Shown: piece after piece, positions 5,444 through 19,775 of the stretch
Numbering within the stretch: position 1 is the first letter of the stretch
Layout: every line of letters begins with the position of its first letter
The notes under the pieces: model-generated
Told to the model about the DNA's origin: nothing
Database searches by the model: none
What the model saw: only the letters and a program-made list of their open reading frames with translations
DNA from: Reclinomonas americana ATCC 50394
Lineage: Eukaryota
Reading direction: 5' to 3'
Length of the DNA stretch: 20,000 bases
NCBI GenBank assembly: GCA_048213135.1
Contig: PS015249.1
Location: 80,537 to 100,536 of the forward strand
Program-made: the position numbers and the translations under genes

Positions 5444-7624
5444 ATGCGCACCACCACACGTGGTGACAAGTCCTCAGCAACCGCCTCTCTGAGTGTGTCT
5501 CGCAAAAGCGCACAGGTAGAGGCGCGTGTAGACAGCGCAGAAGGCGTCATGGCAGAGGCGAGCGCGAAAGTGACACCAGCGGTCAGTGTGTGTGTGTCTG
5601 TCTCTCTCTTGTGCGTGTGTGTGAGCATGCATTGTGACTTTCATACCTCATGGTCGCCACTGGGAAAGTCAATGAGGAGGCTGTCGGAGGCAGTGGCGCA
5701 GGTGCAGCGCACACTGGTGGCCAAGATCGAGCAGGCCAAGGAGGACGCCATCTCGCTCCTCGATGAGCGCTTTCATGCGCTCACTGACGAGTGCGCAGAG
5801 TCCTTGTCTCGCACGCAGCAGGTGTGTGTGTACGCGCGCGCGTGTGTGTGTCTACAGTGTCTCACGCGCAGAGAGGAGCAGAAGCTGACGCTGGAGATGA
5901 CGGCGACTGCCAATGGCGGAAGCAATGGGAAGGAATCTGTGTCGGCCACGGTGTCTTCGTCCTCTTCTGGAGGCTCCTCCGCGTCCTCCTCTGACGAGGC
6001 GCACAAGAAGGACGATGATGCTGAGGAGCGCGAGGAGCGGCGGCGACGCGGCTTGCGTCGCAAGGAGTTTGTGCCGCGGGAATCGGTCTTGTCGGTCATG
6101 CTGCAGGAGGAGTCGTTCCGCACCATTGCCAACATCGCCATTGCCTCGCTCATTGTCTTTACGCTTTCCGTGCTTATCACCGACTACACGGAGACCGGGC
6201 GTCTCATTGATACCACGCTCCTGGAGGTTTGCTCCCGGGCACTCGCACCACTCACGAATTGTGATGGCGCTGACGCGTGTGTGTGTTTGCCTGTCGCAGT
6301 GGGTGTTGGAGATGATGCCGACTTTCATGCGCTTCTGGTTGTGCCTCTACCTGGCCTCGTACCTCGTGCTGGTGCTGGCACACAAGGCCGCCACCACCAC
6401 CGGCTGGCAGCGGAAGTTGTGGTTGACGACGTACATTGCGTTCCAGTTCTCCACCTTTGTCTCCAGCGCGTTCTTCGTCCTCAACCTGAACTCGCGACCG
6501 CCGCTGGCCGCTGCGCTGCTGGCCGAGCAGGCGCGTCTGTGCATGAAGGTGAGCAGTTTGCAGATTCGCATTGGTTGTTTTCCTATATCTGTGGGTGTGC
6601 GTTTTGGAAAGCCTGACACTGCTGTGTGTGTGTGGCGACGCGTCACAGATGCATGCGTACTTCCGCGAGAAGCTGATGTGGAAGACGATGAAGCACTCGC
6701 CGCCGCCAGTGACGCCGGCAACGTGGCATTACATTGGCTCGGAGATTCGTCTGTACACCTACTTTTTGTGGGTGCCGACGCTCGTCTACCGCTCCAGCTA
6801 CCCGCGCACGGCGCGCATCCGCTGGGGTGCCGTCGTGCTGCGCGTGCTGGAGGCGCTGGCCACCATGCACATGACGTTCCTCATCTTCAAGGTGAGTTGT
6901 CTTCCTCGCCATTGATTCTTCCAGTCCGTGCCGTGACATTTGTGTAGGCCGTGCTGCCGACACTCGGACGGGTGGAGCGCATCACCGATGTCAGCTCGTT
7001 CCTGACGACGTGGTTTGCCCACATGGGCCCTGGCATTGCGCTGATGTTCCTGACGCACTACGTGGTGCTGCACGCGTGGCAGAACCTGTTTGCCGAGCTG
7101 ACGCGCTTTGCCGACCGCCAGTTCTACGAGGACTGGTGGAATGCGCGGACGTGGGAGGTGCTTTTTATTTCCTTTGCATTGTCGTGCCGGGTGGTGGTGG
7201 AATGGTTCTCACGGCGGTAATTTTGCAGGATTTCTACCGCAAGTGGAACGGCCTGGTGCACGACTTTATCAAGGAGTACGTGTATCTCGACCTGCATCTG
7301 CTGCTGCACTGGAAGCGCGCGGTGGCACTGCTGGCGGCCTTTGCCATCTCGGCCATTGTGCACGAGTTCATCATGTCGTTCGTCTTTGGCTACTTCTACC
7401 CGATCCTGTTTGTGCTGTTCGCCGGCCCCGGCGTCATTCTCGTGTGGCTCACTCGTCGCGTGCGCAACCGCTGGTGGAATGTCTTCATGTGGTTGTCGCT
7501 GTCGGGCGGCAACGGCCTCATGATGGTGCTGTACTCGCTCGAGTGGCACGCACACAAGAATCCGCGACCCATTACCGAGTGGTGGCATTCGCTGCTGCCG
7601 TACTCGTGGCGCGCGCTGGTGTAA
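5444..7624 (+). CDS. SOAT: MBOAT-family sterol O-acyltransferase (SOAT/ACAT-like), about 577 aa
   Basis: Exons: 5444-5581, 5669-5821, 5882-6226, 6300-6548, 6649-6891, 6948-7157, 7229-7624; total 1734 nt. Motifs: KEFVPRESVL, MK|MHAY, YFLWVPTLVYRSSYPRT, FAELTRFADRQFYEDWWN, FYRKWNGLVHDF and the catalytic His in SAIVHEF, all typical of SOAT/DGAT1-type MBOATs. The start codon and the first two acceptors are less certain. Confidence 0.92.
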
Positions 7625-7785
7625 CTACAGCGCATGGCTCTCTCTCTTTTTCTGTCTCCTCCTGTGTGTGTTTTCGTGCCTGGAGTGACAACCAAGTGCC
7701 TGAAAGAAGTCCAATTGAAGCACTGCTCTCTCGAAAACAACAGCAACAACCTTGGTCTATTTGAACTATTATCAAGAGCACCGGC

Positions 7786-10700
7786 TCACTCCTGTTTTCT
7801 CCGCGCCGCACGCAAGCGACGGCGGTGGACCTTGGTTGCCTCGCGCCAGTAGCGGTACACTGCAGAAGGTTGACGTGAGAGGAGAGAGATGAAGCAGTGA
7901 TCGTGGCAGTAGCAGCGCGCTCACCGACAAAAAGATAGTACGCAAACGAGCAGAGCAGGATGCCGGCTGCGAGATGGAGGAAAAAGTCAGGTTCCGCAAT
8001 AACGATGGGGATGTACACACGGATCGGCACCAACCGAGCGGGTAGGTGGCCAGCGACGGTCGCACATCGCAGTACGAGTCGCAGTCGATAATGTCGTTAT
8101 TTTGGCCGTACGTGAATTGGGAGGCGTTGAGGCGCAGGTGATCGCACAAGCCAGTGAAGGACTTGGGGCCGGTATTGGCGCTGCAGCTGTAGTGGATGGG
8201 CAGGAAACCGATCGATAGGTACGTGGACATGAGCATGCCGACCAGCACGATGCCGCCGACCAAGTGGAATAGAGCCACGCCTGCGTGTTGCGCGACAAAG
8301 AGAGAGGGAGGGAGAGAGGGAGAGGGAGGGGCAAGGGAGAGAGAGATAAAGAGAGAAGGAGGGAGAGAGGGGAGAGAGAGGGAGAGAGAGGGACGCAGAG
8401 AGGGGGAGAGAGGGACGCAGAGAGGGGGAGAGAGAGGAAGGCAGAGAGGGGGAGAGAGAGGGAGGCAGAGAGGGAGAGAGAAGGGAGAGAGAGAGAGGGA
8501 GTGTGTGTGATTTGTGAGGGTGTAGTGAAAATTGAGAGACGCCGAGTGAGCTGTCGACTGACCCAGACGATTGTTGACAAAGGCTGTTTGGCACAAGGAC
8601 GGGTGAGGCGAGGACGAGAGGTTATTCGGGAAAACGGCAGCGACAACGCACCCACAGTGTATCGCAGAATAATCGCAGTCATGAAGATGGTGCAGATGCA
8701 GGCCGTCGCGACCACAAACGAGTCTGTGCGCGGAAAAAATCAGACAAGCAGGACGACTCGATTGGAGAGAGCGGTGACGAAACAAGCAAATGGCAAATTG
8801 TTGATGCGCGGTGAGCACACGGATTGTGTCATGGTCAACGACGGGATGATGTTTTCTGGCAAAGCAGGTGAGAGCAGAACAACCAAGCGGTTCCAGAAGG
8901 ATGCAGCAGCGTACCGAAGGCGCCGCAGTTGACGGTTGGAGTCATCAGCAGAATCGACATGGACGAGAGGGAGATCACCAGCTTGAACAGTGCGCTTACG
9001 TCCTGCACAATCGCAAAGGCCACTCGGAGACGACTCTGTCGCTTCTCCAACTCCTTGACGGTGATGGCCACTCGCACCTCGCCGCCTTTCCAGTCGCCAG
9101 TCGTCTCCCCCTCCATCGACGACTGATCGCTAATGTCATCGTCGTCGCCATTGTACCTTTGCAGGTCTCTTCGCCGGCTCTCCATCTCCGTTTCGGCGTC
9201 TGCGGCGGCGCTGGTGCCAGAGTAGAGCGACACACCAGATCCGGTTTCCAGCAGGCGCGCATCCTCTGCCGACGGGGTCACATTGGGCTCGGGAGTCACG
9301 TGCGGACGCCGACGGCGACCGCATCCGCAGCAGGCGGCCACACCGGCCTGCGACGGCGGCATGGGGCGCTGGTACTCGAAGGCCAGGTACGCCATGTACA
9401 GGGTGCTGAAGATGAAGCTGAAGGCGAGCATGTAGACCTTGTAGAGGGAAGGGAGATTAAAGAGGGGTTCACAGAGATACAAGGCAGGAGAAGGCAGACA
9501 GCGAGGACTCACCTCTGGGGCATTCCTCGGGCTGCATCTGTGGGGAACAATGCAAAGCACGGACAGGATGAGGTCTTCTCTCACCATGCGAGAGACCAAC
9601 ACACACAAACACACCCATTGCTGCAGCCGTACTGCGCGGTGCACGGCTGCCCGTTGGACAGTGGACATGAAAACTGCTGCGATGATGACGCGGCGGTGCA
9701 GCCGATATCGGGGTACAACTGCGTAATGTTCAGCGACAGCTGCAAGCTGAAGCATTGGTCGGAGATGAGCTGTGCGCACACACATAATCACAGGGAGGGT
9801 GTGTGTGAGAGAGAGAGAGAGGGCCACAGAAAGACAACGCGGAATGCAAAGGCGAACAAACCACTGGATCCTCGCAGTGGTACCCCGGCGCCAGCAGCAG
9901 CGTGTAGAAAATGGCGGAGATCTTTGCAATGCCAAACACCAGTGACAGCGCGGTGATCCCGTAACTGACGCAGGATATGATGAGCGACAGCACCACTGAA
10001 AAAAAATCGACACACGACGCACCCAATGAAGACGGCCCATCGCTGGAACCACCCGAACGTCTTCAACAGAATCGAGAAGAAGAAGAAGATTTGGTTGGCG
10101 ACGACGAGGGCGATGAAGACGTCCTTAAGCGCCGCCACGTCCACCTTGACGTTGCAGAACTGCGAGGAGGAGGAGGAGGAGGAGGAGGAGGAGGAGGAGG
10201 AGGAGGAAGAAGAAGAGGGAGGAGGAGGAGGAGGAGGAGGAGGAGGAGGAGGAGGAGCAAAATGGGAAGAAGGGAGATAAGCAAGGAGGAAGGAGATGCA
10301 ACGAGAAGAAGACGCAGAAGAAAAGGCGATGGAGAAGAAGAAGAACAAGAACAAACAAGAACAGGAACAGGAAGAAGAAGAAGAATAAAGAGAAGAAGAG
10401 GAATAAGGAGGAGGAGGAGGAGGAGAACAAGAACAAGAAGAACAAGAAGAAGTAGAACAAGAACAACAAGAACAGCAAGAACAAGAACAAGAAGAAGATT
10501 AGAAGATACAGAACACGGACACAGTGGAGAAGATGAAGGAGGAGGGCGAATGGGAGGGAGAGGAAGATGAACAGCAAGTCAGTGAAGAACACAGTGCAAC
10601 GACGCGCAAGAGCCACACTCAACGTTGGGATTACCGCGCATCTCTGCACCGGTAATGACCTTGGTGGTGGGCCGGTTCAGTGAATCACAAAAGTACAGAC

Positions 10701-10880
10701 TAAAGTCCGAGCATTGCATCGCCTCGTCGCTCCTGCATGAAGAAGAAGAAGTAGAATCAGAGAGAGAGGAAAAGGGAAGAGAGAGAGATGCGTCATGAAT
10801 GATGAGATACGTGTGACATTGCATCCTTGTGTGTGAGAGAGAGAGTGTGTGTGTGTAGGGGTGTGTGTGTGTGTGCGGAG

Positions 10881-10914
<34 letters not shown>

Positions 10915-11350
10915 GAGTGTGTGTGAGTGAGAGAGTGAGAGAGTGAGAGAGTGAGAGAGTGAGTGAGTCAGGGAGTGTGTGAGAGTGAGTGAGAGACAAT
11001 GAGTGAGTGAGTGAGTGAGCGTGTGTGTACCTGTGTGTAAGTGTGTGCGGAGGTGTGTGTGTGAGAGAGAGAGAGAGGAGGAGTGTGAGTGAGTGATTGT
11101 GTGTGTGTCTTTGTGTGGTGTCTTTGTGTATCTTTGTGTGTCTTTGTGTGTGTGTGTGTGTGTGTGTGTGTCAGTCTTCGCAACTGCAGGAGCAACACAA
11201 TGGAGATTGCAGTCAAGAGCGACTTGAGCTGTCAATCACACATGTGAGTTGCATGACACACTCACTCACTCACTCACACTCGTACTCTCTCACCTGCACA
11301 GTGATGTCTTGTGCAAACATAAACACGCGGTTCCATCGCGAAGACAACAT
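7786..11350 (-). CDS. Uncharacterised 8-TM membrane protein A (two tandem 4-TM units with Cys-rich loops), about 559 aa; paralog of 11426-15672
   Basis: 14 exons (minus): 11350-11294, 11228-11185, 10732-10624, 10159-10023, 9964-9862, 9769-9615, 9537-9513, 9437-8915, 8855-8784, 8723-8652, 8583-8563, 8280-8035, 7966-7925, 7859-7786; total 1680 nt, in frame. Starts MLSSRWNRVFMFAQDITVQLKSLLTAISIVLLL and ends VYRYWREATKVHRRRLRAARRKQE*. The model is cross-validated by end-to-end alignment with the paralog. Confidence 0.85.
8297..8500. repeat. GA-rich low-complexity tract (intron of membrane protein A)
   Basis: Nearly all-purine GA/GGA run containing a repeated GGGACGCAGAGAGGGGGAGAGAG unit; it is a polypyrimidine tract on the sense strand. 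Confidence 0.85.
10164..10570. repeat. (GAG)n/(GAA)n/(GAACAA)n compound microsatellite (intron of membrane protein A)
   Basis: Directly visible; lies in intron 10623-10160. Confidence 0.9.
10828..11171. repeat. (GT)n/(GA)n/(GAGT)n compound microsatellite with a duplicated GTGTGTGCGGAGGTGTGTG...GAGGAGGAGTGTG unit
   Basis: Directly visible; the unit occurs at about 10869 and about 11041; lies in intron 11184-10733. Confidence 0.9.
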
Positions 11351-11425
11351 GATTGCAAAGAGAAACACGAGAGGACAAACCCCAGTTTGTGAGGAGTGCT
11401 CTCTCTCTCTCTTTGTCCTCTTGTG
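11351..11425. promoter_or_regulatory. Putative bidirectional promoter / 5' UTR spacer between head-to-head paralogs
   Basis: 75 bp between the two divergent ATGs. Inverted repeat CACGAGAGGACAAA (11366-11379) / TTTGTCCTCTTGTG (11412-11425) matches at 13 of 14 positions. Small internal stem ACAAAC-ccca-GTTTGT (11375-11390). Promoter function is inferred from position only. Confidence 0.6.
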
Positions 11426-11556
11426 ATGGTGTCTGCGTTCTGGAGACGCACTTTTATCTTTGTGCAAGATGCGAGTGTTATGGTGAGAGAGAGTGTGTGA
11501 GAGAGGAAACTGACAAGATGCTGACACTGTCATGTGTGAGATGAGTGTGTGTGTGT

Positions 11557-11632
<76 letters not shown>

Positions 11633-11984
11633 TAGAGTAGAGTAGTAGTAGTACGTACGTACGTACGTACGTACGTACGTACGAACGTACGTACGTACGA
11701 CGTACGACGACGACGACGACGACGAACGTANNNNNNNNNNNNNNNNNNNNNNNNNNNNNNNNNNNNNNNNNNNNNNNNNNNNNNNNNNNNNNNNNNNNNN
11801 NNNNNNNNNNNNNNNNNNNNNNNNNNNNNNNNNNNNNNNNNNNNNNNNNNNNNNNNNNNNNNNNNNNNNNNNNNNNNNNNNNNNNNNNNNNNNNNNNNNN
11901 NNNNNNNNNNNNNNNNNNNNNNNNNNNNNNNNNNNNNNNNNNNNNNNNNNNNNNNNNGACGACAAACGAACAGACGAGTACGAC

Positions 11985-12050
<66 letters not shown>

Positions 12051-12196
12051 TACATACATACATACATACATACATACACACACTCACTCACTCACTCACT
12101 CACTCACTCACTCACACAGAGAGAGAGAGAGAGACGAGTGATGGGAGAGAACTGACTGCTTGCAGACTCAAACGATGCGGAGTGACATGCGCACAG

Positions 12197-12238
<42 letters not shown>

Positions 12239-15200
12239 AGTGATGAGAGAGAACTGACTGTACAGCCTTAGAATGGTGCAGAGTGACTGTGTAGACTCAT
12301 CATGCGCACACACTGAACGTGAAACATCGCTCCACTTCCTTCTCTCTGACTCTTCTCTATTTCTCTCTCTCTTATCTCGCTCAGGCCAAGTCGTTTCTGT
12401 CATCGGCGGCCGTGTTCCTCGTGCTTCACAATCAGGAGGCGGTAAAGTGCCCCGACATGACGTTGGGGTTTTGTGATTCGAAGCAGAAGCCGGTGTTGCG
12501 GACGATTTCTGGGTCTGATCTGCAGCATTCGCCGTCGGTGAGGAGGGAAGGGACAGGGACGGGGAGGCAGAGGGAGGATCTCTCTGTATGCTCACCTGTC
12601 TTTGCAATTGTCGAGGTTTCTTTGTGACTGTTTCTTCTTGCCCCTCTGGCGTTCTTTGCATCTGTCTCTCGAATCTCAGTGGCTTGTATGGCCTCACGTT
12701 CTTCCCCTTCTCTTGTTCTTCGTGCGTGTCTCTCTCCTCTCGTCGTGGTCTCTCATTGTCTTTGTGATTGCTAGCTTCTTCATTGCAGCTGTTTCTCTTC
12801 TCTCTCTGTCTTTCTTCGGCTGTTGCTTTGTCTGTCTCTCCTGCCTCCGTGCTCAGTGTTGCCGTTGTCGAGGAGACGCTTGGTATGACTGTCATCTCGT
12901 TTCCCTTCTTCTGCTCTTCGTGTCTGTCTCTCGTCTCTCCGTTGTCTGTGTGGCCACAGTCGATATGACTGCTGGTTTCTTGGTATGGCTGTTATCTTCT
13001 TTCCCTTCTCCTGTTCTTCGTGTCTGTCTCTCGTCTCTACGTGGTCTGTTTGGCCACCGTCGAGCACGTGCTAGCTTCTCGCTCTGTGGCTGGCATCTCG
13101 TCTCCTTTCTTCGGCTGTGACAGTGTCTTTTCGTGGCCTGTGTGGCACCGTCATGGTCTTTGCGACTGCGGGTATCTTCGTTGCAGCTGCTTTTTCTTCT
13201 CTCTGTCTTTCTTCGGCTGTTGCTTTGTCTGTCTCTCCTCCCTCCGTGCTCAGTGTTGCCGTTGTTGAGGAGACGCTTGGTATGGCTGTCATCTCGTTTC
13301 CCTTCTTCTTGCTGTGACTGGCATCTCGTCTCCTTTGTCTCACGTCTCTACGTGGTCTGTGCTACGAGCTTCACGGCTGTGTGGCTGCCGACGTCTTGAT
13401 ACGGCTGTCAACTTTTTCCTTTCTCCTGCTCTTTGCGTCTGTCTCCGTGGTCTGCTTGGCCACCGTCGAGCACGTGCTAGCTTCTCGTTGTGGCTGGCAT
13501 CTCGTCTTTTTTCTTCAGCTGTGACAGTGTCTGTCTCCCGTCTCTTCGTGGTCTGTGTGACACCTTCATGGTCTTTGCAACGGCGGGTATCTTCTCTTCT
13601 CTTCTCCTCTCTTTGCTGATTTCAGCCTCTTCCTTCCTGGTCTGTTCTTTGACCTTCCTCCTCCTCCCTCCGCAGTACTGCAACGTGGTGTACGACACGG
13701 CCGGTCTCATGGAGACGTACGTGGTGCTGGCCGTGGCCAATCAACTCATCTTTCTGACGGCCATTCTGTTGCGCACGTTTCGACCATTCGCGGCCGCCGC
13801 CACCATCATCGGGTGTGTGCGTGTGTGACAAATCGCAAGAAGAAATGATGATCTCTGATCCCATTTCATCGCAGTTACACGGTGACAGTGTTGTCGGCGT
13901 TGTTTGGTGTGGCACAGTACTCTCTGGTGTACTACCTGCCGTTCCTGAGGGCACGTTTCAAGTGCTATGTGGATCAGGTGAGTCGCCGCCGTTACCATTT
14001 CCCCTCTCTTTGTCTACACATTGCCTCACTCGCGTGTCCAGTTTACCAGCACCAACTGTACCGGCTTGATGATATCGATGAATGTCACGCAATTATATGC
14101 CGACGTTGGTTGCTCGGGCTACTACGGCAGCCAGACGCCCATATGTCCATACACCAACAACTGCATGACAACCTATTCGTGTGGCAAGTGAGTGAGTGCA
14201 GTCTGCGAACATAGAGCAAGAAACGCATTCTCTCTTACTCTGCTTTTCACAGCTGCCAGGCCTTTGTGCCGACCGAAGTGTTTCTGCTTTCCGTCGCATT
14301 CCTCGTCTCCTGTGAGTATGCCACACACACTGGCACTCATCGTGCTTTTCCTATCTCGCCTTACAAGTTCGCGTCCCCCTTCACCGCACGCGCAGCGTTG
14401 TATGTGGCGTTCCTGGGCTTCGAGTACCAGCGCAAGATACCGCCAGACATGGAGTGCTCGTTTTCCGACTTTTGGCGCGACTGCACGTGTCGGCGGAGGC
14501 GAAAGAGTGCCAAGGATCGCGATCAGCTCTTGGACGGTGACAATGCCGCGGTGGTGACTGCCACGGTTGCGGGTATCAATCAGCCCGCCGACGGTGAAAA
14601 CACGGTGGTGGCGGTGGTGGCGACTCCCTCTGCAGCAGCAGTAACCGCGGCGGCGGCGGCGGCGGCGGCAAGAGATCGGCAAGAGGAAGAGGAGGAAGAC
14701 GATGATGGACAGGAGGGCAAATTGCTGGCGATTACCGTGCAGCAGCTGGAGATCCGCCAAGGCATTCTCCGCCACGCCTTCGGTCTCATGTCGGACATTA
14801 CGTCGCTCGCCAAACTCGGACTCACGCTCGTCTCCATGTGGTTCCTCACGTTGAGCCCGAATGTTCACTGCTTCGATTATCGTACGTTCATCTACTCCCT
14901 GTCTTTCATCAGACGGTGAACTGACTGCATTGCCGTGGCTCGCAGAGGGCGTTATTGCCGGCTACACCATCCAGAGCAGTGTTTGCAGACCGTTCACGCT
15001 CAACAACCTCCCCGTGGCCTACACTTTCATGGTGGGCACGGCGTGCATTCTGCTGCTGTTCATCTCGTGCATCGTATTGAACTACACTGTCGCGTTCGTG
15101 GAGAACCGTCTCGGTGAGTGTGTGGCACGGGCGACTTGGCCATCGCTGTGGACAGGGAGATTTATTATTTGCATGTGCAGGTGTCGCGCTGTTCCACGCC

Positions 15201-15672
15201 GTTGCCGCCACACTAATGTTGTTCCTCCTGCTGTCCACCTACATTACGGCATACTTTGTGCCGATGTTGTACGAGTGTTACGGTAACAGTCCGACGCGCA
15301 CGTATGGCGGCATCTGCAAGCACAAGAAAGTCGACGCTACGACGCTGAAGGTTCCCGGCGTCACCGGCACCATCGACTGCGACCAGCAGTGCACCATGGG
15401 CGTCTCATCGGCCACTCTTCCACTCAGTGCGTGCCCTCCCTCGCTGTGCGTGCTTGTGTTTTCTAATGTGGCTGACCGTGCTCCGCAGTTGCCATTGCCA
15501 TCTCCTCGTACGTCTACATGCTTGTGCTTTGTTGCGTCTGCTGTGCATTACACCGACTGTATTCGTGTCATCTCACCGTCGTCATGTGCGCCACTCAGTG
15601 TTCCGGTACTGGCTGTCAGCGAAGCGAGTGGCTATCCGGCGGCATCGTGAACTGGCAAGGAAACTGGCATAA
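11426..15672 (+). CDS. Uncharacterised 8-TM membrane protein B (two tandem 4-TM units with Cys-rich loops), about 556 aa; paralog of 7786-11350
   Basis: 11 exons: 11426-11482, 12385-12537, 13676-13812, 13875-13977, 14042-14187, 14253-14311, 14396-14881, 14946-15113, 15181-15426, 15489-15530, 15599-15672; total 1671 nt, in frame. Starts MVSAFWRRTFIFVQDASVMAKSFLSSAAVFLVL and ends LFRYWLSAKRVAIRRHRELARKLA*. Six exons have the same length as in paralog A (57, 137, 103, 246, 42, 74 nt). Confidence 0.85.
11544..12260. repeat. (GA)n, (CA)n, (TACA)n, (CACT)n microsatellites flanking an assembly gap (intron 1 of membrane protein B)
   Basis: Directly visible. Also a short duplication GAGAC[G/A]AGTGATG[G/A]GAGAGAACTGACTG at about 12131 and about 12233. 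Confidence 0.9.
11731..11957. other. Assembly gap (N run)
   Basis: 227 N, intronic under the proposed model. Confidence 1.
12620..13620. repeat. Degenerate tandem repeat, unit about 400 bp, about 2.5 copies (intron 2 of membrane protein B)
   Basis: A block of about 105 bp (TCTCTGTCTTTCTTCGGCTG...CTCGTTTCCCTTCTT) recurs at about 12803 and 13200; TTGGCCACCGTCGAGCACGTGCTAGCTTCTCG at about 13050 and 13456; CATGGTCTTTGCxACxGCGGGTATCTTC at about 13152 and 13567. Confidence 0.85.
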
Positions 15673-16013
15673 GGATCACATAGAATGAATAGCAACAATC
15701 AAACAAGAGTTGGCAAGGGACGCAACCCTGCTTTCGTTGACCATTCCCGTGTCTCCTTTGACCCTTGTGCATCTCCCAGTGACCCTTGTACCCGGCCGTG
15801 CATCGATCCTGGCATCTATGACTCTTCCCTTCGCAGGACAACTTAGAGGTAAAGGTTGGTCAAAGAATCGCGTGTTTGCAACAACATACGGGCTTCGGAT
15901 CCAGATCGTACGCACACAGCAGCACTTTTCAATCACAGTCCACCTGGAGGCATCTTCTCCAACAAAACGTCGCGTCCGATCGCATCCATCGCATCTTTTC
16001 GTCGATCGCAATC

Positions 16014-19000
16014 ATGGGCAACGCGTGCGGCGCCAGTGTGCCTCGCGTATCCGTTCGCCGTCTCGCCCTGCACTCCGTCCCCGCAGAAAGCGCCACTGAC
16101 ACAGGCGACTCTTCAACAGATGCTCTCCGAGTTGCTTATGACAAAAGACCCGCTCTCTCTCCTGCTCACTCTCTCACTCTCGCATGACAACAGTCGGGGC
16201 ACGTGGCAGTGGCCATTGACGCACATCGCGTTCTCATGTTTGGCGGGCATGTGGAGCACAAGTCGTCGACTTCCAATCGTCGACACGCGCACCAGCGCAG
16301 TGATGGAACGGGAGCGCCTCCAACGCGAGTGGAGTGTGAGATCACTGATCATCATCATCATCACAACAGTAGTCATGCAGGTCTTTCATGAAAACAACAC
16401 AGTGACAGATAGTGTGTTCGGATCTCTGATGTGAATGATCGTGCAGTGGATCACACCGAGGCAACGTTCTCCAACGACCTGATGGTGATCGACACGGAGT
16501 TTCATGAGAGAAGGCGAGTGGCGTGGAAGATGGAGGCGGGTGAGGCGCCACCGGCTCCGCGAGCGCGATGCACGTTGACGGCGTTGGAGTTGGGTGGCAG
16601 CAGTGGATTTGTGCTGTGGGGTGGCCAGTTGGGACCGAGGGCGTTCAGCAATGAGACGCTGTGGTTGCAGTTTGCTGATGGTGAGCAGAGGGGGGAGAAA
16701 GGGGGACAGGGGTAAAGGGGAAGGGAGGAGAAGGGAGGGAAGGGAGTAAGGGAAGAGGGAACTGAGATCATCTTGGGTCGTCTGTTTAAATTATGCTCTT
16801 CGCAGTGAGTGCCACCGAGATGCAATGCAAGGCCATACAATTGGAAGGCGCGGTTCCAACGCCACGATGTGGTCACTCCTGGTGAGTTTCTCTCCCTTGT
16901 TCCAATTCCCCCCCTGTACCACTTCATTCCTCACTCACTGCGTTTCTTCAGCGTGAGGTATCATGACAAACTGGTAATATTTGGTGGCTACGACGGTCAG
17001 CAGCTCCTGGCCGACATGTACAGTATCGATATAGGTTGCGTCACTCTCTCTCCACTGCCCCCTCTAAGAAGAAGTGCCGCGCCTCACCCGTTGCGAGCAG
17101 AAGCACGCACAAGCGAGGTGCTGGAGCCGCATGGCACACCGCCAATGGCTCGCTGTGGTCACGCGGCTGCGATGATATCTCCCCACGTCATGCTCGTGTT
17201 TGGTGGCATGCAGCCGGAGTGGCCGTGGGCACCGCGAGCGCACGTGTACGATTTTGGTTCGTGGGATTTTTCCTATTTCGCTCTCGTCTTTCTCTCACAT
17301 GCATCCGCCTCTGTGCAGACAGAAAACGATGGCGTGCCGTGCACTTCCTTGGACGCATTCCACCGGCCGTCGCATACGCCTCGTTCACCAAGGTCGCCGA
17401 GGGTGGCTTCTTGCTGGTGGGCGGCGAGACGGTGCACATGACGGCCAGCGAGCATCTGCATTATCTGTCGGTGGACGGCATGCACTGGTCGCAGGTGAAG
17501 CATTCGTGGCGGCGCGGAAAGGCACCGCGTCGTTTCGGCGAACAGGTGGTCATGCTCGGCACGGATCGCGGCCTGCTGTGCGGCGGCGAGGATGACTTTG
17601 GGCCGTCGGACGACGTCTACGAGATTCGCCTGGGTTTGTGGATTGGCGAGCTGTTTTGTTTCCCCATGCTTATTATTAACACGTGCGTGTTACAGCGTCA
17701 AGTGTGGCCGCAGCACGAGCAGCAACCGAGCATGGTAGGCGTGCAATCTCCACCGGTGACACGGCATTTCGCTTTACTTACACTCTTCTCTTCGTCTTTG
17801 CGCAGCGGAGCACACGGAGAAAACGGCAATGCACATTGCGCGCGTCGTGTCACGTGGCTCCCTAAACCACTTGGTCATGGAATGGGATGGTGCACGTCTG
17901 CCCAAACACTACACGCAGCTGCGCGTGCTGCACCGAGCGCCCGGAAAGATGGCTTCCGGTGTGTGCACCACCACCACCGCCACTCGTTTGACTTTTCCCG
18001 TACTCACACTACGCTCACAGTGGCCAGCGAGGCCGTCATCACACCGGGTGCGGGGGAACATAAGCGCCTGCGTGTGGAGCTGCCGCTGCATGAACCCGGC
18101 ATCCACATGCTTCGGCTGGAGGCCTTGGCGCACGTGCCAGCCAGTCGCAGTATCACAATTCCCATCATGGCCGGCACAACGGGTGCTGCGTCTGCTGCTG
18201 CCGCCGCCGCATCACATGCAACCACGATCGGCACGCTTCCGCACTCGGACGATTCCACCGCCGCCGCCCTCGCCTCCTCCTCCTCCTCGACCTCGGCCAC
18301 CGACGTGTGGCTGCTGCGACACATGTCGTCGAGTGGCGGCGGCGGTGGTGGCGGCATGGAATCTGCGCCGTCGCTCGAGTGGATCGCCTCACCTTGGGTC
18401 CGCATCCGTCGCCGCAATCGCGCCTTCCGCGACGGAGTCGAGCACGAAAATGAGGGAGACGACGACGACGATGACGACGACCTGGAGCTCGACGAGACAT
18501 CGCCCTCCCCACCAGTCAAAGGNNNNNNNNNNNNNNNNNNNNNNNNNNNNNNNNNNNNNNNNNNNNNNNNNNNNNNNNNNNNNNNNNNNNNNNNNNNNNN
18601 NNNNNNNNNNNNNNNNNNNNNNNNNNNNNNNNNNNNNNNNNNNNNNNNNNNNNNNNNNNNNNNNNNNNNNNNNNNNNNNNNNNNNNNNNNNNNNNNNNNN
18701 NNNNNNNNNNNNNNNNNNNNNNNNNNNNNNNNNNNNNNNNNNNNNNNNNNNNNNNNNNNNNNNNNNNNNNNNNNNNNNNNNNNNNNNNNNNNNNNNNNNN
18801 NNNNNNNNNNNNNNNNNNNNNNNNNNNNNNNNNNNNNNNNNNNNNNNNNNNNNNNNNNNNNNNNNNNNNNNNNNNNNNNNNNNNNNNNNNNNNNNNNNNN
18901 NNNNNNNNNNNNNNNNNNNNNNNNNNNNNNNNNNNNNNNNNNNNNNNNNNNNNNNNNNNNNNNNNNNNNNNNNNNNNNNNNNNNNNNNNNNNNNNNNNNN

Positions 19001-19775
19001 NNNNNNNNNNNNNNNNNNNNNNNNNNNNNNNNNNNNNNNNNNNNNNNNNNNNNNNNNNNNNNNNNNNNNNNNNNNNNNNNNNNNNNNNNNNNNNNNNNNN
19101 NNNNNNNNNNNNNNNNNNNNNNNNNNNNNNNNNNNNNNNNNNNNNNNNNNNNNNNNNNNNNNNNNNNNNNNNNNNNNNNNNNNNNNNNNNNNNNNNNNNN
19201 NNNNNNNNNNNNNNNNNNNNNNNNNNNNNNNNNNNNNNNNNNNNNNNNNNNNNNNNNNNNNNNNNNNNNNNNNNNNNNNNNNNNNNNNNNNNNNNNNNNN
19301 NNNNNNNNNNNNNNNNNNNNNNNNNNNNNNNNNNNNNNNNNNNNNNNNNNNNNNNNNNNNNNNNNNNNNNNNNNNNNNNNNNNNNNNNNNNNNNNNNNNN
19401 NNNNNNNNNNNNNNNNNNNNNNNNNNNNNNNNNNNNNNNNNNNNNNNNNNNNNNNNGTGTGTGTGTCTTTTCTTGTCTGGCAATTGCTGACCCCCTTTTC
19501 TCACAACAGGAAGCCGCAGCACTGGTGCGTCCCCGTACAACTCACTGTCGCGTGTCGGCAGCCGCGCGCGCAGCCGCAGTCGCGACGCTGCAGTGGCGCG
19601 TCGTCTCGGGACATCTGCCGACTTGGTCCTCATTGAGCACTACGTCGACAGTGGTGCCTCTGCGCCAGTCGCTCCCGCCAACGCCAACGCAGGTGCAGTG
19701 GTGGTGGGAAGCCTCTCCGACAGCAGTCTGCAGGGAAGCCCTGTGGAGCAGGGCCGTCTGCCTGCCGCGTGTTAG
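16014..19775 (+). CDS. Kelch-repeat (six-bladed beta-propeller) protein with N-terminal MGNAC acylation-like motif and low-complexity C-terminal region
   Basis: Exons: 16014-16130, 16194-16335, 16447-16680, 16806-16881, 16952-17034, 17101-17256, 17319-17633, 17696-17734, 17806-17958, 18021-18521, then the gap, then 19510-19775. Six kelch GG motifs (MFGG, LWGG, IFGG, VFGG, LVGG, LCGG), several preceded by PR-x-x-H-type motifs (RSGH, PRARC, PRCGH, ARCGH). The last exon joins in frame across the gap if 18522 is a donor G; further exons could be hidden in the gap. Confidence 0.85.
18523..19456. other. Assembly gap (N run)
   Basis: 934 N, inside the kelch gene. Confidence 1.

Follow-up and report, generated by a model that had tools for sequence, protein, structure and literature searches.

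Two head-to-head paralogues with 75 bp between their start codons in Reclinomonas americana and an inverted 14-nt element as a candidate part of back-to-back minimal promoters

How can two divergent genes both be transcribed when only 75 base pairs (bp) separate their start codons? The question is raised by a locus of Reclinomonas americana ATCC 50394, which lies on a stretch of 20,000 nucleotides (nt) of contig PS015249.1 (positions 80,537 to 100,536, assembly GCA_048213135.1); this whole stretch is called the window and all positions are counted from its first letter. Gene L is read leftwards from a minus-strand ATG (CAT at 11348-11350) and gene R rightwards from a plus-strand ATG (11426-11428); the spacer between the two start codons (11351-11425) has no ATG on either strand and carries two copies of a 14-nt element, arranged as an inverted repeat. 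Our answer comes in three steps of decreasing strength. The inverted repeat is real and non-random. The two genes are paralogues, and it is well supported by their sequences that the spacer holds the centre of an ancient inverted duplication. Finally, as the most likely reading, with about an even chance of being right, we propose that the two 14-mers are parts of two outward-facing minimal promoter or leader elements, with start sites inside the spacer and very short leaders.

The spacer and its inverted repeat

The positions given in the initial annotation, with divergent ATGs at 11350 (minus strand) and 11426 (plus strand) and 75 bp between them, agree with our reading of the sequence from 11100 to 11700. 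Both start codons look real from their surroundings: each has a purine at position -3, and the start context of gene L, GCAATCATG (11348-11356, minus strand), is found again exactly at 16008-16016 (plus strand), at the likely start of the next gene. GCAATCATG may be the preferred start context of the organism; it occurs as an exact 9-mer twice in the window, and the product at the second occurrence begins with MGNACG, which we take to be a myristoylation-type N-terminus. The reading frame of gene R has a stop codon at 11390-11392 and no ATG between this stop and 11426, which makes 11426 the first in-frame start. On the plus strand, the left half of the spacer is rich in purines and the right half rich in pyrimidines, with a G+C content of about 49%.

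The right copy of the 14-mer, TTTGTCCTCTTGTG (11412-11425, plus strand), directly abuts the ATG of gene R (0 nt), whereas 15 nt lie between the ATG of gene L and the left copy, TTTGTCCTCTCGTG in the minus-strand reading (11366-11379). The two arms are complementary at 13 of 14 positions, the single mismatch that the initial annotation had counted. It had further taken the repeat for one shared cis-element just upstream of each ATG: this fits the right copy, which touches the start codon, but less so the left copy, which is 15 nt away, and there is not one shared element but two copies, each in sense orientation to one gene. One sense-oriented 14-mer per gene is what one would see if every gene had a copy of its own to serve it. 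Between the arms lies a unique centre of 32 bp (11380-11411), presumably the junction or loop of the inverted duplication, in which exact-match diagonals reveal no mirrored similarity except simple GA/CT runs. A smaller stem of 6 bp, also described before, pairs perfectly (ACAAAC at 11375-11380 with GTTTGT at 11385-11390, with a loop of 4 nt, together 11375-11390) and overlaps the left arm; this hairpin is the centroid of the predicted DNA fold and is not significant when taken alone.

The inverted repeat was compared with two kinds of background. When the spacer was shuffled with its dinucleotide composition preserved, 15 of 5000 shuffles contained some inverted repeat of 14 nt with no more than one mismatch, and among 737 other 75-bp windows of the 20 kb such a repeat is found in two, both within a self-complementary GTAC repeat. 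The motif itself, TTTGTCCTCTYGTG, occurs three times in the 20 kb with up to two mismatches (0.37 expected; three occurrences are reached in 1 of 200 shuffles), the third occurrence being at 5956-5969 with two mismatches. Within the window the motif is thus not a common by-product of a CT-rich background, the simple explanation that the initial annotation itself had named. A search of the region from 11100 to 11730 against Rfam gave 18 matches with E values of up to 1, all far below the gathering score and most of them in the GTAC repeat; the only match over the spacer reaches 18.1 bits (gathering score 70).

Two mirrored paralogues

Gene R (11426-15672, plus strand) is predicted to have 11 exons and to code for 556 amino acids (aa); gene L (7786-11350, minus strand) is predicted to have 13 exons and to code for 577-581 aa, depending on its exon 1. 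Both are complete models with open frames, built from tblastn hits and splice signals. When the open reading frame (ORF) pieces of the minus strand were compared by tblastn with the right half of the window, the hits were collinear, from exon 1 outward from both ATGs. The two proteins are identical at 215 of 539 aligned residues (39.9%), and six exon pairs are alike in length and of the same phase (137/137, 100/103, 155/146, 246/246, 42/42 and 74/74 nt). Each protein has seven hydrophobic segments of 19 residues, one of those in R being a poly-Ala run, and there are 25 cysteines in L and 21 in R. Given the paralogy, the collinear tblastn matches and the paired exons, the locus is the product of an old inverted duplication of a single gene for a membrane protein. 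The best explanation of the data is that this gene coded for a Cys-rich, multi-pass membrane protein, probably restricted to its lineage, in a compact and intron-dense genome.

The arrangement is that of a head-to-head inverted duplication: the genes are homologous, lie on opposite strands with their 5' ends facing each other, and have their exons in mirror order about 11380-11411. The similarity starts exactly at both arms of the inverted repeat, which bears out the earlier suggestion that this is the centre of the original fold-back duplication, and the duplicated unit would have brought along a 5' flank of no more than about 14-29 bp. Away from the 5' ends, blastn gave only one mirrored match at the DNA level, 46 bp long and coding; the 5' regions themselves were compared by exact-match diagonals, as MAFFT misplaced the indel of 15 nt.

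It is highly improbable that the spacer instead carries a miniature inverted-repeat insertion of 60 bp (11366-11425, with terminal repeats of 14 bp) between two adjacent starts, or that the repeat is an artefact of the assembly. Terminal inverted repeats that match at 13/14 around a core of 32 bp are what such an insertion would have; however, there is no target-site duplication, the flanks differ, the 20-kb window holds no further copy, and the arms stand at homologous positions before homologous exons. As for an artefact, a scaffold gap of 227 N (11731-11957) lies only 305 bp to the right of the site, inside intron 1 of gene R, but the centre, both copies of exon 1 and both 14-mers are on a single uninterrupted stretch (11172-11730), and an assembly fold-back or a chimeric read is excluded because the gene arms are only 52.6% identical. 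The window in general is eukaryotic and intron-dense with many simple repeats, and has a second run of N at 18523-19456.

The first exons are part of the mirror image, with one reservation. The stretch from each ATG to a downstream GTGAGA (minus strand, 11293-11288; plus strand, 11483-11488) is 57 nt long, and the initial annotation had accordingly proposed two mirror-image first exons of 57 nt. For gene R this is likely: exon 1 (11426-11482, plus strand, 57 nt, phase 0, donor GTGAGA) is in frame with the acceptor at 12384/12385. For gene L it is doubtful. Exon 1 of gene L (11274-11350, minus strand) has three candidate donors, after 57 nt (GTGAGA), 65 nt (GTACGA, 11285) and 77 nt (GTGAGT, 11273), and both strong acceptors of exon 2 (AG at 10827-10826 and AG at 10734-10733) require exon 1 to contribute two bases. 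An exon of 65 or 77 nt keeps the frame open with the strong acceptors, whereas the 57-nt form is out of phase with both and fits only a weak, purine-preceded AG at 10724-10723; in addition, the long form restores the sequence YLIIHD, which aligns with FLVLHN of gene R. Between the two genes, exon 1 has 9 identical residues out of 19 and 36 identical nt out of 57, and this similarity, the purine at -3 and the upstream stop of gene R support its coding nature.

Both ATG exons would not be the first ones if an upstream non-coding exon, located in the partner gene, or a trans-spliced leader were joined to an acceptor within the spacer. We consider this very unlikely, and equally so that the pyrimidine-rich 14-mer is part of a 3' splice region or of such a leader. 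AG dinucleotides are indeed present in the spacer before both ATGs, for example CAG at 11383-11385 (plus strand), and the genome is very intron-rich, with 10 and 12 introns in these two genes. However, pyrimidine tracts follow the candidate AGs rather than precede them, the candidate AGs of the minus strand are preceded by a GA repeat, and the candidate acceptors differ in phase between the two sides and are thus not homologous; on the R side, with the in-frame stop before it, the ATG at 11426 is the first start in frame. A coding role of the 14-mer was considered too, as it reads in frame as Cys-Pro-Leu-Val in both genes, and was rejected: the stop of gene R at 11390-11392 is not followed by a later ATG within the spacer, and there is no credible acceptor.

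Since the duplication, the two genes have diverged also in their introns. Gene L has two additional introns (8563-8855, minus strand) where gene R has one exon of 168 nt (14946-15113, plus strand), and one intron is offset by 33 nt between the paralogues (9438-9512 on the minus strand, 14312-14395 on the plus strand), being in phase 0 in L and in phase 1 in R; as far as the models go, this indicates gain, loss or sliding of introns since the duplication. All 10 introns of gene R are of the type GT..AG and eight of them have 62-84 nt; gene L has 12 introns. The models contain three GTT-type donors after exon ends other than G (T/GTTGCGT at 15531, C/GTTGAGT at 10623 and T/GTTTCG at 8783, the slash marking the exon end) and a fourth that follows a G (G/GTTGGT at 8034).

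Searches for relatives were made with single exons only, and a fold-level relative may still exist; within this scope, no known relatives of the L/R family were found. Pfam searches with eight single-exon translations of L and R gave no match above the cut-off and two sub-threshold hits on low-complexity stretches, and a word-index protein search (longer proteins) returned 403 candidates, none of them at E <= 0.001. A profile search of 1.84 billion representatives with an alignment of the last large exon had one hit (E 1.6e-06, in seven stretches), a tandem-repeat protein of 1351 aa that we judged to be spurious. The final ~25 columns of this alignment are intron, and a trimmed version was used for a scan of metagenome contigs, which gave 335 pattern matches of which none was confirmed. 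In the ESM Atlas the best score was 0.89, below the meaningful level.

Among the 24 runs listed by a sequencing-run search with positions 7900-11730, none contained half of the sequence words and no RNA run was listed as containing them. DNA contigs matching gene L came from run X1, at 9959-10155 and 10506-10575 (perfect), and from run X3, at 9532-9788; none of the contigs of runs X1, X3, X22 and X24 bridges the spacer, and their other matches are just pieces of 18-38 nt on simple repeats. Between its two matches, across the GAG/AGA repeat in intron 2 of gene L, the X1 contig has ~112 letters where the window has 350 (10156-10505), which reflects either a difference in repeat length or a collapsed repeat.

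Conservation of the 14-mer and possible sites of transcription start

Do the two 14-mers have a function? The initial annotation had described the inverted repeat as better conserved than the flanking coding DNA, and this holds: the 14-mers match at 13/14 (93%), compared with 36/57 nt in exon 1. Over 1617 aligned coding nt, L and R are 52.6% identical, third codon positions are down to 43.2%, and the same codon is used at 103 of the 211 identical residues other than M and W. Only ten of 1461 gap-free coding windows of 14 nt reach at least 13/14, all in one cluster (the FEYQR region). The non-coding 14-mer is thus conserved at the level of the single best-conserved coding spot, and the edges of the match are sharp. 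With third positions at 43.2% and identical residues so often coded differently, unconstrained DNA of such age would be expected to be unrecognisable.

The same numbers bear on the view that the pair of 14-mers has no function and is a relic or coincidence, the last recognisable non-coding part of the duplicated arms, aided by CT-rich sequence, while the promoters are elsewhere or diffuse. This seems quite unlikely to us. It is true that there are two copies only to compare, that these are set in a low-complexity CT/GA context and were selected post hoc, that 15 of 5000 shuffles still give such a repeat and that the 14-mer is 15 nt farther from the ATG in one gene than in the other. But a relic would hardly be expected to be recognisable next to third positions that have decayed to 43.2% and coding DNA with only one cluster at 13/14, nor to give a sharp-edged match at the homologous place in both genes.

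If the 14-mers are instead parts of two back-to-back minimal promoters, each copy would act in cis for its own gene as an element close to the start site. It could be a core promoter or initiator; instead or in addition, it could form the body of a 5' leader that is very short and rich in pyrimidines. Transcription would begin within the spacer and proceed outward, giving leaders of at most about 45 nt, and the 75 bp would represent two minimal promoters back to back rather than one shared element. The initial annotation had proposed a bidirectional promoter of extreme compactness, with 5' untranslated regions that would be very short or overlap, and this is plausible. Comparable known elements would be the polypyrimidine initiators of the TCT/TOP type, where the transcript begins within a run of pyrimidines that then forms the leader; the L copy of the 14-mer lacks the arrangement of a C before a T run that is typical of these initiators.

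What is known of the duplication narrows down where the start signals may be. Both copies of the gene are intact although the duplicated 5' flank measured no more than 14-29 bp, so that three places would be left for the start signals: the spacer, the partner gene and the transcribed 5' part of each gene. Start sites inside the spacer are favoured by its lack of ATGs on either strand and by what a longer leader of gene R would contain: a plus-strand transcript that starts left of 11349 would include the ATGs at 11303 and 11349, and a plus-strand leader with both arms would form a stem of 14 bp that adjoins the ATG (minimum free energy -29.8 kcal/mol, z -2.14; 5 of 200 shuffles do as well). The plus-strand ATG at 11349 overlaps the start codon of gene L (CATG) and opens an ORF of 25 codons that spans the spacer (11349-11426) and whose TGA overlaps the ATG of gene R.

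In support of back-to-back minimal promoters we also offer the compactness of the genome, which seems sufficient for tiny promoters. The stop codon of gene L (7786-7788) is 161 bp away from the stop of a convergent plus-strand MBOAT gene (Pfam E 2.4e-13; its last ORF ends at 7624), and 341 bp separate the stop of gene R from the likely start codon that follows. The 3' ends of gene L and the MBOAT gene must be very short or overlapping (7622-7788). Further downstream of gene R, an ORF at 16809-17441 (plus strand) has Kelch repeats (Pfam E 3.3e-12, below the cut-off of that model; Kelch_1 is above its cut-off) and may be part of the gene starting at 16014.

Several points weigh against back-to-back promoters. 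The functional reading draws on the conservation between two copies alone, and the motif was chosen post hoc while scanning for oddities, so that the shuffle figure of 0.3% overstates its significance. The body of gene R (exons 2-11) is linked to its exon 1 only across the scaffold gap of 227 N. The distance between 14-mer and ATG differs (0 nt in R, 15 nt in L), which argues against a strictly distance-dependent role such as that of a Kozak-type context. Two conventional pre-initiation complexes need more than 32 bp. On the minus strand the best predicted fold does not use the 14-bp stem, and there is no ATG between 11533 and 11350, so that the argument from upstream ATGs covers gene R only. 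Finally, in 11 yeasts the lower limit for promoter-containing regions between coding sequences (inter-CDS regions) is 80-255 bp (PMC3128071), and the 75 bp found here are at or below this limit.

A second mirrored element points to a different arrangement. The 9-nt sequence CATGTGTGA is present in intron 1 of both genes, in gene L at 11236-11244 (minus strand) and in gene R at 11531-11539 (plus strand); counted from the A of the respective ATG, it follows at 106 nt in L and at 105 nt in R. It occurs three times in the window (0.33 expected), a number that none of 200 shuffles reaches, and when the two intron starts are shuffled, a 9-nt match at the same offset turns up in 51 of 3000 cases (1.7%). 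As the pair was noticed post hoc and lies within GT-rich simple sequence, it is suggestive. A minus-strand ATG in the right-hand CATGTGTGA opens a frame of 61 codons (11533-11351) that is antisense to exon 1 of gene R and leads in frame into the ATG of gene L; it has no counterpart at gene R and is probably due to chance.

The mirrored CATGTGTGA would find a place if the divergent transcripts overlap, each gene starting beyond the ATG of its partner, within that gene's first exon or first intron, which we hold to be unlikely. The 14-mers would then be within both leaders and act at the RNA level (as a hairpin or in translational control) or as factor binding sites, a role that is doubtful to the same degree. 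Just as tentatively, the two CATGTGTGA, ~182-190 bp upstream of the partner's ATG, would be flanking promoter elements, and there might be a likeness to ordinary nucleosome-free bidirectional promoters with start sites 100-200 bp apart, for which we see a similarly small chance. The excess of CATGTGTGA (3 versus 0.33) and its mirrored offsets (+106 and +105) speak for overlapping transcripts, as does the stem of 14 bp that the plus-strand RNA forms; a long leader of gene L would be tolerated, given that the minus strand lacks an ATG between 11533 and 11350, and by general knowledge 32 bp are tight for two initiation complexes. On the side of gene R, however, the leader would carry the ATGs at 11303 and 11349 as well as a strong hairpin at the start, both of which normally depress translation, and the CATGTGTGA match, being in GT-rich simple sequence, is just modestly significant (1.7%, post hoc).

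Minimal promoters inside the spacer could also be thought of as a direct product of the duplication. The fold-back itself may have made a complete, self-sufficient palindromic promoter, in which two 14-nt initiator-like elements face outward across 32 bp; we put this forward as a speculative reading with a low chance of being correct. As at most 29 bp of 5' flank were duplicated and both genes are nevertheless intact, all start signals would have to be within ~30 bp of the ATG or in the transcribed part. The relevant transcribed part would be exon 1 together with the mirrored CATGTGTGA, and the 5' end of each gene would double as the upstream region of its partner, which is again possible rather than likely.

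Comparison with other divergent gene pairs

Short regions between divergent genes are known from several systems. A bidirectional promoter in the usual sense serves a divergent pair whose start sites are less than 1 kb apart and whose regulation is shared; at the present locus, 75 bp is the distance between start codons. Divergent histone genes share a short region from which both members of a pair are driven. For paralogues, the classical example described in PMC12141075 are the head-to-head pairs of collagen IV genes (COL4A1/COL4A2 type), which share a short bidirectional promoter. Like these, genes L and R are paralogues on opposite strands that face each other with their starts and have a very short 5' region in common, and the pair is old and has been retained. 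Unlike in the collagen pairs, the 75 bp separate start codons rather than start sites, what is conserved is an inverted repeat of 14 nt located at the ATGs, and the gene family is without known relatives. Head-to-head pairs with a common promoter region are mentioned for Mucorales as well (PMC12957363).

A precedent for such short distances comes from Giardia, for which PMC1885649 reports working head-to-head intergenic regions of 153, 177 and 30 bp. As in these minimal bidirectional promoters, the genes are head to head at a distance of tens to ~150 bp; the leaders of Giardia are very short, and its core promoter elements are located where transcription starts. The elements of Giardia are, however, AT-rich and degenerate, in a genome that is almost without introns, while here a pyrimidine-rich 14-mer is found in a spacer of ~49% G+C between genes with 10-12 introns each. 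In yeasts, old and short divergent inter-CDS regions are taken as true bidirectional promoters (PMC3128071); in comparison with these divergent yeast genes and their limit of 80-255 bp, the 75 bp here are at the limit or under it, and the pair consists of paralogues from an inverted duplication. In the abstracts and excerpts covered by our literature search, no description was found of a conserved inverted element that abuts the start codons of head-to-head paralogues. The locus joins the known head-to-head paralogue pairs, and its particular features are the extremely short distance between the start codons, the intron-rich setting and the 14-nt element that has survived in both copies.

If transcription starts elsewhere, the site would be the scar of an old inverted duplication. 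If the 14-mers work as start-site elements, it would be a natural minimal system, consisting of two genes, a spacer of 75 bp and one repeated element. A palindromic promoter, should this reading be correct, would be among the smallest bidirectional promoters for RNA polymerase II in an intron-rich eukaryote, and a promoter born from a palindrome. If the 14-mers are start-site elements, the pair would let one ask how much DNA a eukaryotic promoter needs at minimum and how direction is set in a compact, intron-rich genome, and it would mean that an inverted duplication with almost no upstream DNA can still give rise to two long-lived, expressed genes.

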